Shown here piece by piece: positions 63,165 through 63,986 of a stretch of 64,000 nt of DNA (its first letter is position 1; every line of letters begins with the position of its first letter). Source of the DNA: Flaccisagitta enflata. Its lineage: Eukaryota. The stretch is taken from NCBI GenBank assembly GCA_965153355.1, contig OZ231126.1:27652001-27716000 (forward strand), read 5' to 3'. The notes below the pieces were generated by a model. The model worked only from the letters and a program-made list of their open reading frames with translations, was not told the origin of the DNA and searched no databases. A program made the translations under genes and the position numbers.

Positions 63165-63986
63165 TCATCCTTGAGCGCACATTCCTTCCCAAAGCATCGA
63201 GTCTTGAAAATGAACGAATTTGCCCTTTCTCGCGTCCATTGCGGCCTTTTCTAGACATTTCAAAGTCTTGACGTTCGTGTCCCAGAATGTGGCGGAGTGG
63301 TATGTCCGACCGTACTTGCCGCAGAAAGCCTCCACTCGCTCCCTCAGATCGCGCAAGCGATGGCGCGGCACGCGAGGGAATATGTGATGAGCTGGATACA
63401 AAGGAACAGATGAAAACGATTGATGAAATAGGCTTAAGGGAAACTTGGAGTGTTGTAATATGGCAGGTCGCAGGTGCATATCAAGATGTACGCTAGAATT
63501 ACAAATGTATTGGCATTATTCCCCAACCTGTTTGGAACTGAAGTCCGCCGTGAAACCAATCCATCCAGCGAGGACAATCGATATCGATGCAAGTTCGGAG
63601 CTGGTGGAGGAAATTATTGAAAAAATATAAGATTATTAAATCACTATCTCCGGTGAGGTTATCCTAAAAAAATCACTCACTTCGTTTCCATTCCATGTTT
63701 CATACCTGCGTGTCGAAAAATTGTTCATCGTCGTTTTTGTAAGTGATGTCCTCGAAAATCTCCATGGAAAAGTGGGAAAGGCAAATCTGCAAGAAGAATG
63801 ACAGAATCGGTGATTGGAGATCTTGCGCTTGTCGTATGTCGAAACCATTCTGACTTAACGTACCTGGACATGGAGAATACCAGCGATGGCGTGAGACAAG
63901 AGAAGGCATGAGATCAGCAATTTCCAAGTGAGACAGTGACTAAGCATCCACGAGACCCAACTCCAGTAGATGATGACACCGGCGAT
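63165..63986 (-). CDS. Front-end desaturase, Delta8-sphingolipid desaturase (SLD1)-like; last four exons 63986-63864, 63786-63706, 63600-63528, 63391-63165
   Basis: GT-AG introns of 77, 105 and 136 nt join in frame to give IAGVIIYWSWVSWMLSHCLTWKLLISCLLLSHAIAGILHVQ/ICLSHFSMEIFEDITYKNDDEQFFDTQ/LRTCIDIDCPRWMDWFHGGLQFQT/AHHIFPRVPRHRLRDLRERVEAFCGKYGRTYHSATFWDTNVKTLKCLEKAAMDARKGKFVHFQDSMLWEGMCAQG*; third His box is QxxHH. Confidence 0.9.

Follow-up and report, generated by a model that had tools for sequence, protein, structure and literature searches.

An expressed, intron-containing gene from marine plankton predicted to encode a cytochrome b5-fused front-end desaturase

Described desaturases and how the locus compares with them

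Cytochrome b5-fused front-end desaturases work through a common chain of electron transfer: from NAD(P)H, via a reductase, to the haem of an N-terminal cytochrome b5 domain (marked by the motif HPGG), and from there to a di-iron centre in three histidine boxes, with O2 being used and two hydrogens being removed from the lipid chain. The following groups come closest to the gene described here: (i) plant and green-algal sphingolipid desaturases (SLD, SLD8), whose genes are not known to carry introns in plants; (ii) fungal sphingolipid 8-(E)-desaturases; (iii) SLD-like proteins predicted from animal genomes; and (iv) the vertebrate FADS1, FADS2 and FADS3, which have the same fusion to cytochrome b5, a QxxHH third box and the same electron path in the ER.

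In the gene's product, as predicted, several features of the plant and green-algal SLD/SLD8 proteins (date palm P0197/P0337, Klebsormidium, Chara, Mantoniella) can be recognised: (i) Cyt-b5 plus FA_desaturase domains with HPGG and three histidine boxes; (ii) the blocks HVQxCLxHFS and D(I/V)xCPxW(M/L)DWFHGGLQFQxxHHxFPRxPR; and (iii) a C-terminal end of the form ...WE(G/A)xxxxG. But while their third box reads QVEHH or QVIHH, that of the gene reads QTAHH; furthermore, the gene has at least four introns and belongs to a separate, strongly supported clade. The fungal enzymes (Cadophora P0260 and the JGI-labelled P0254) have the same fusion and boxes and rank among the best 150 representatives, with 291-297 bits and an identity of 38-42% in the stretches that match; nevertheless, they are longer, match in two stretches and form a clade of their own far from the gene. 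As for the animal SLD-like predictions (Trichoplax sp. H2, Watersipora subatra, Nematostella vectensis, Desmophyllum pertusum and Acropora muricata), they have the same architecture and are 41-44% identical to P0003, a member of the gene's clade, none being closer than 45%; W. subatra falls in an 18-row clade together with the gene, whereas the cnidarians and Trichoplax branch elsewhere. The motif around the third box of FADS differs from that of the gene, and vertebrate FADS1, FADS2 and FADS3 are absent from the named proteins among the best 120 of 3074 matches of P0003.

Delta8-unsaturated sphingoid bases, including 4,8,10-trienes, are described from starfish and squid by Pruett et al. (2008; PMC2444003). 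SLD and Delta6 fatty-acid desaturases are interleaved in trees, according to PMC6010785 and the Ostreococcus SLD8 preprint (10.1101/2023.05.16.541044) and, due to this phylogenetic intermixing, names transfer poorly. Possible metazoan sphingolipid desaturases among actiniarian Fads are discussed by Surm et al. (2018), according to whom these "have yet to be identified in metazoan taxa" (PMC6010785). Among the transfer candidates in Table 1 of Bhattacharya et al. (2016; PMC4878875) is a coral "fatty acid or sphingolipid desaturase", and one table of a 2019 review has Delta8-desaturase phenotypes as "Not reported" in three pre-plant columns, presumably animal. The preliminary description of this DNA had presented an animal SLD-like gene as something new, which was overstated: predictions are already deposited for Placozoa, Cnidaria and Bryozoa, and the question is already in print in PMC6010785 and PMC4878875. 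A search of the full-text literature (subscription journals and supplements being outside its scope) found no functional characterisation of an animal b5-fusion sphingolipid desaturase and, in consequence, the Delta8-unsaturated sphingoid bases of marine invertebrates are without an assigned gene. The same literature held no tested function for the SLD-like proteins of Trichoplax, Watersipora, Nematostella, Desmophyllum or Acropora.

The spliced gene, its transcripts and its full-length product

The window is the whole stretch of 64,000 nucleotides that was analysed. Its last 836 bases hold, on the minus strand, the 3' part of a spliced desaturase gene with four coding segments and three introns. 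In the order of transcription, its features are:

63987..64000, minus strand: 3' end of an upstream intron, with acceptor AG at 63988-63987; 14 bases are in the window and the 5' part of the gene lies beyond it
63864..63986, minus strand: exon a, 41 codons, phase 0; residues 336-376 of protein P0013, hydrophobic, ending ...ILHVQ; covered by RNA
63787..63863, minus strand: intron of 77 nt, GT..AG; RNA joint 63786/63864 in runs X4, X5 and X7
63706..63786, minus strand: exon b, 27 codons, ICLSHF...FFDTQ
63601..63705, minus strand: intron of 105 nt, GT..AG; RNA joint 63600/63706 in X4, X5 and X7
63528..63600, minus strand: exon c, 24 codons plus 1 nt, LRTCIDIDCPRWMDWFHGGLQFQT; carries the Q of the third histidine box
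63392..63527, minus strand: intron of 136 nt, phase 1, GT..AG; RNA joint 63391/63528 in X4, X5 and X7
63165..63391, minus strand: coding part of exon d, which finishes QTAHH and continues with the C-terminal 75 residues; TGA stop at 63167-63165
62598..63164, minus strand: 3' untranslated region of about 567 nt, its end being approximate; AATAAA at 62622-62617

Each of the three introns begins with GT and ends with a pyrimidine-rich tract and AG. Joined by script, the four segments give an open peptide of 167 residues terminated by TGA. The preliminary description had placed a desaturase gene at 63165-63986, and these coordinates are exact, 63165 being the last base of the TGA and 63986 the first base of the first exon in the window. 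Its further claim, that four exons splice cleanly into the C-terminal half of a desaturase, is borne out by the GT..AG ends and the RNA joints; and all the motifs that it quoted are present in the spliced peptide, with LHVQICLSHF lying over junction 1, QLRTCIDIDCPRWMDWFHGGLQFQTAHHIFPRVPRH over junctions 2 and 3, and LWEGMCAQG at the end. Compared with Pfam on its own, exon d matches FA_desaturase (E 1.1e-6) with 29.0 bits, slightly below the cut-off of 29.7, while exons a, b and c, which are too short for such a comparison, give no match singly.

Four sequencing runs were compared with positions 62900-64000, and the RNA evidence comes from three of them (X4, X5 and X7), which are marine metatranscriptomes of one study. 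In one RNA contig per run, the three introns (136, 105 and 77 nt) are skipped exactly, and the joints show CT..AC ends on the plus strand; in X4, the joint 63786/63864 rests on just 26 letters on its shorter side. The DNA run X1, from the source organism, has no splice joints, and its six pieces span exons and introns alike. The splice junctions that had been proposed as a check are present in RNA contigs for all three introns. At the upstream acceptor, the RNA contigs of X4, X5 and X7 depart from the genome at 63988 (the junction being ambiguous by two letters), and the 30 loose RNA letters past this point encode, on the minus strand, the residues of P0013 that precede exon a. The longest RNA contig (X7, 302 nt past 62900) stops near 62598, about 19 nt after the AATAAA. 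The stretch that carries the gene is present in DNA runs of the source organism as well as in marine metagenome and metatranscriptome runs. The gene is real, spliced and expressed. Furthermore, the position of the 136-nt intron recurs in P0005, predicted from the genomic contig of a relative: there the intron is read through at the same place, so that the exon c sequence, in another frame, is followed by about 30 unrelated codons and then by ...AHHIFP.

The window peptide equals the C-terminus of P0013 and P0014, two independent transcript-derived proteins of 502 residues each, at 166 of its 167 positions. The sole mismatch (K/N, at 63225) falls on a site that varies across the contigs of the sequencing runs, and the source contig of P0013 (2107 nt) has the same size as the RNA contig of X7. 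On the grounds of these three agreements, P0013 is treated here as the probable product of the window gene or of its allele, of which the window encodes residues 336-502 of 502. Its part with HPGG and Cyt-b5 lies beyond the window, to which it is tied by the 166/167 match and by the loose end of the RNA.

Pfam finds both domains of the family in P0013, with Cyt-b5 covering residues 58-128 (E 1.3e-24) and FA_desaturase covering residues 188-460 (E 2.2e-32). Its motifs are HPGG at residue 89, HDAGH at 209, HNVHH (inside WWKDSHNVHH) at 246 and QTAHH at 426, the last of these being encoded in the window over the junction of exons c and d. With an HPGG-bearing b5 domain and the three boxes HxxxH, HxxHH and QxxHH, it belongs to the cytochrome b5-fusion front-end desaturases, as had been claimed from the QxxHH box of the window peptide; the HPGG, HDxGH and HxxHH that had been expected upstream are all in P0013. 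In sequence comparisons with solved structures, P0013 matched cytochrome b5 domains, and no solved structure matching its desaturase domain was found. The product would be a front-end desaturase of the ER membrane, fused to cytochrome b5 and encoded by a spliced nuclear gene of a marine planktonic eukaryote, in which HDAGH, HNVHH and QTAHH would provide the ligands of the di-iron centre.

Relatives, phylogenetic position and predicted activity

With exon d as the query, seven relatives were found on transcript-sized contigs at 76-86% identity, three of them of full length (492-494 residues); the 90% cluster of the best match includes P0013 and P0014. The search with P0003 found 3074 proteins at E <= 1e-10, in which identity is 76-83% within the gene's own clade and then falls to 45% or less. 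Among the best 120 of these 3074 proteins are (i) the animals Trichoplax sp. H2, with a "Delta(8)-fatty-acid desaturase", Watersipora, Nematostella, Desmophyllum and Acropora; (ii) from the green lineage, Chara, Klebsormidium (with a "Sphingobase-D8 Desaturase"), Cymbomonas and Mantoniella; and (iii) Hemiselmis, together with EukProt and MMETSP transcripts. A HMMER search with P0013 over 1.84 billion representatives at 50% identity had 557 of them at E <= 1e-30; the gene's own clade was represented by one (80% identity) and the next stood at 45%. Names were sought for ten of the best 150 representatives, and these gave landmark clusters for date palm, for Cadophora ("fatty acid/sphingolipid desaturase") and under the JGI name "sphingolipid 8-(E)-desaturase". 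P0013 and the date-palm cluster representative P0197 are 37% identical over 460 residues (E 1e-114), and the cluster carries two names, namely "delta(8)-fatty-acid desaturase 2" and "acyl-lipid (9-3)-desaturase-like". In Atlas, which is used here as a lead only, the top three clusters score 0.97-0.98: the first-ranked (0.98) has Chordata as its commonest group and the other two are mainly Streptophyta, one of these being a "Fatty acid/sphingolipid desaturase"; a FADS1 cluster is at rank 17 (0.94). Compared with JGI metagenome contigs, P0013 matched 16 loci in the cytochrome b5 domain only (29-42% identity), and no genomic relative was found among them.

The histidine boxes are conserved in the 17 sequences of the gene's clade that were compared: the first box is HDAGH in 15 and HDSGH in one, and a single fragment lacks it; the same fragment lacks WWKDSHNVHH, which the other 16 have; and the third box reads QTAHH in 16, against QTTHH in the remaining one. 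Such conservation would be the pattern expected under selection for activity. QTAHH is not unique to the clade, as it occurs in 26 proteins, 19 of the gene's clade (fragments included) and seven outside it, and the block around the third box is conserved in nearly all the relatives inspected.

Three trees were built: (i) FastTree, with 123 rows; (ii) a quick IQ-TREE, with 51 rows; and (iii) a careful IQ-TREE, with 40 rows, under LG+C20+F+G4 PMSF with ultrafast bootstrap / SH-aLRT, unrooted. The smaller trees omit fragments, rows nearly identical to members of the gene's clade, three rows on long branches and most of the matches without a name; the SLD landmarks are named homologues instead of the characterised proteins, and no characterised FADS, Delta5, Delta6 or Delta4 enzyme is included. 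All three trees agree on the groupings. The gene's clade is monophyletic (100/100) and groups with two EukProt sequences and one further sequence at 91/78; this group and a nine-row clade, to which Watersipora (a bryozoan) and a cluster that includes an MMETSP sequence belong, make up the 18-row clade at 99/99. A green clade of SLD8 type (Mantoniella, Chara, Klebsormidium and date palm; 99/93) excludes the gene, and a fungal SLD-type pair (100/100), three cnidarians (100/100) and Trichoplax are found elsewhere in the tree, whose deepest split is weak (72/90). To our knowledge, no member of the 18-row clade has been functionally characterised. The preliminary description would have been contradicted by a peptide grouping within FADS or within the acyl-lipid Delta6 clades: FADS clearly do not appear to be the nearest relatives of the gene, going by the named proteins among the best 120 matches, but an acyl-lipid function is still compatible with the results. 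Its assignment of the gene to an SLD-like family on the basis of motifs holds, the closest named relatives being of SLD type and P0197 sharing HVQxCLxHFS and CPxWMDWFHGGLQFQ with it.

The explanation that best covers all of this is an expressed b5-fused front-end desaturase, probably of a zooplankton animal, in which SLD-type activity is likeliest; we give this combined reading slightly better than even chances. As for the activity by itself, the likeliest prediction is that the enzyme desaturates the sphingoid long-chain base of ceramide, at C8 or close to it, and this is about as probable as all the others taken together. It draws on the JGI label of the clade member P0004 ("delta8-fatty-acid desaturase", an automated label and no test of function), on the motifs common to SLD-type relatives, on the 37% match to P0197, on the lack of vertebrate FADS among the named proteins of the best 120 matches, on the Atlas ranking and on the occurrence of Delta8-unsaturated sphingoid bases in starfish and squid; counter to it are the separate 99/99 clade, the exclusion from the SLD8 and fungal clades, and the "(9-3)-desaturase" labels on some neighbours. 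Delta8 activity on sphingoid bases is plausible and, since the gene lies outside the plant/green-algal SLD8 clade, it is put forward here as a prediction. The gene may otherwise encode a PUFA front-end desaturase (Delta6, Delta5, Delta8 or Delta4, acting on acyl-CoA or acyl-lipid) with a role in the synthesis of long-chain PUFA, a possibility that we consider substantial though clearly short of probable. Such enzymes have the same architecture and the same QxxHH box, and the position of the gene outside the SLD8 landmark clade and the intermixing of SLD and Delta6 enzymes in published trees would both suit them, as would the label "acyl-lipid Delta6-acetylenase / acyl-lipid (9-3)-desaturase" that JGI gives to several neighbours (among the best 120 of 3074) and the double naming of the palm cluster. 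Nevertheless, the sole functional label inside the gene's own clade is that of an SLD orthology group, the motif block of the third box is common to charophyte and palm sequences of SLD type, and no characterised PUFA desaturase has been shown to be closer. What is left of the probability goes to lipid substrates other than sphingoid bases or PUFA. It is most improbable that the gene is a decaying or inactive copy: while the 3' half alone can be inspected in the window, the frame stays open across all four exons, correctly spliced RNA shows the gene to be expressed, and the full-length product has all the catalytic boxes, conserved across the clade.

Genomic surroundings, origin and meaning

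The window is rich in repeats, including satellites, very long microsatellites and SINE-like repeats. It contains an intact LINE with an endonuclease (5933-6460) and an ORF2 of 1060 residues (6614-9796) with RVT_1 and zf-RVT domains; ORF2 has 14 matches, the close ones at 34-70% identity (ENA contigs) and the named ones being plant L1-like, at 25-28%. A pair of inverted repeats of about 1 kb (58942-60030 / 61582-62506) ends about 90 nt from the 3' end of the mRNA. The observed/expected ratio of CpG is 0.65 overall and 0.78-0.99 in the less repetitive parts, values that do not point to any taxon. Rfam gave 0 matches on the whole window, and no telomere-type repeats were found in it. Pfam on nine other ORFs of the window found LINE domains and sub-threshold coiled-coil matches only, and an ORF of 165 residues (46670-47167) had low recognition in Atlas, with a best score of 0.86 and no usable lead.

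The preliminary description had also linked the gene to host repeats and to a SEPT7 exon. The first link is supported: the repeat families of the gene's flank (60179-61117) recur across the window, at 10046-10528, 27080-27567, 29292-29693, 48129-49324, 50242-50559 and 56937-57174, which favours a single genome for the gene and the remainder of the window. The second could not be reproduced, as six-frame regular-expression scans of the window for septin GTPase and septin-unique motifs gave no convincing match; since these scans look for motifs and not for profiles, a septin exon that is short or divergent could escape them.

We consider that the gene is probably of animal origin, from the zooplankton, on account of (i) the absence of its clade from MMETSP and EukProt; (ii) its presence in ocean metatranscriptomes; (iii) the style of the genome; and (iv) closely spaced variants in the DNA. 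If the host were instead a large-genome marine protist, or the locus foreign DNA in an animal assembly, there would be no "animal SLD" here. We regard this as unlikely on balance, but by no means negligible. No metazoan marker gene was found in the window (the septin motif scans being negative), the named relatives of the LINE ORF2 are all plants (25-28%), the sister sequences come from EukProt with an MMETSP transcript in the other branch of the 18-row clade, and the cnidarians, Trichoplax and Watersipora are not monophyletic with the gene; in the opposite direction, the gene's clade comprises at least eight distinct sequences without a single member from MMETSP or EukProt, which widely sample cultured protists. 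The LINE, SINE-like repeats, satellite and long microsatellites, polypyrimidine tracts and AATAAA signal also speak for an animal, as do species-labelled DNA runs that hold the locus at 99% with closely spaced variants, none of these being decisive. An animal could, in turn, have acquired the gene long ago by horizontal transfer, with an alga or another protist as the donor and introns gained later, for which we see a rather low probability. Animal SLD-like sequences are scattered among protist ones, over no fewer than four separate parts of the tree; the coral "fatty acid or sphingolipid desaturase" appears in Table 1 of PMC4878875 as a candidate from chlorophyll-c algae; and the clade is isolated, with 80% identity to a single representative and then 45% among the 1.84 billion. 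However, the deep branches of this unrooted tree are weak (midpoint split 72/90), the hosts and donors of most of its rows are unnamed, and an ancestral eukaryotic gene that was patchily lost would explain the data just as well.

In any case, the locus is a well-documented new member of a known desaturase family from a poorly sampled lineage. The gene's clade and its bryozoan-containing sister may even represent the animal enzyme for the C8 (perhaps also the C10) double bond in the sphingoid bases with two or three double bonds that marine invertebrates contain, a suggestion from sequence that we hold to be unlikely as it stands; on this reading, the carrier would be a zooplankton lineage that is abundant but lacks an annotated genome. 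P0013 is a complete expressed frame, from an organism common enough for ocean metatranscriptomes to yield its assembled transcripts, and its activity is therefore open to direct testing in yeast. Were the enzyme to act on PUFA instead, it would have a bearing on the amount of long-chain PUFA that zooplankton produce on their own.

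Mobile and repetitive elements

The window contains a non-LTR retrotransposon, an inverted repeat pair located beside the desaturase gene and two classes of tandem repeat:

Mobile and repetitive elements of the window
5933-9796, forward strand: non-LTR retrotransposon, endonuclease ORF followed by ORF2
58942-60030 and 61582-62506: inverted repeat pair, arms of ~1 kb each, ~90% identity
9738-10598, 48779-49363, 60110-60600, 60769-61117 and others: short-unit satellite arrays
15782-16323, 17891-18816, 24825-25565, 36479-36946 and 40322-40883: very long microsatellites

The retrotransposon is apparently intact. 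In Pfam, its endonuclease ORF matches Exo_endo_phos (E 1.7e-6), while ORF2, located 3' of it, is open over 1060 aa and matches RVT_1 (E 5.5e-26) and, weakly, zf-RVT. Its nearest relatives are ENA contigs (48-70% identity); the only named relatives found are plant L1-like elements (25-28%).

The arms of the inverted repeat, which may be a foldback-type element, are separated by ~1.5 kb of satellite DNA, and the 3' end of the desaturase mRNA lies ~90 nt from the end of the right arm. A short satellite unit is common to far-apart parts of the window (70-82% identity), and the short-unit arrays are often adjoined by a conserved SINE-like segment, several copies of which contain ...CVLQD.GP.GP.P... 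in translation. The microsatellites are trinucleotide and dinucleotide runs, several hundred bases long, from which most of the long "ORFs" of the window arise.

Other open frames

Two further open frames can be distinguished:

46670-47167, reverse strand: 165-aa frame with a coiled-coil-like part
16565-17200, reverse strand: 211-aa frame carrying a Cys/His-rich motif close to the end

The 165-aa frame, a possible exon of either a host gene or a mobile element, has only sub-threshold Pfam matches (MIP-T3_C, E 0.0018; HAUS-augmin3, E 0.0067), and the Atlas protein-cluster search gave no usable lead for it. The Pfam search gave no match for the 211-aa frame, possibly the tail of a further retroelement.

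Sequence variation around the desaturase exons

Over 62900-64000, the source organism's DNA run assembled into short pieces, with breaks every ~300 nt, and 62900-62962 was covered by two alternative contigs, each at about half depth. Within 62900-64000, small indels and substitutions are located solely in introns, apart from coding site 63225, which is also variable (K/N). These short pieces, half-depth alternative contigs and variants suggest high heterozygosity or population variation.
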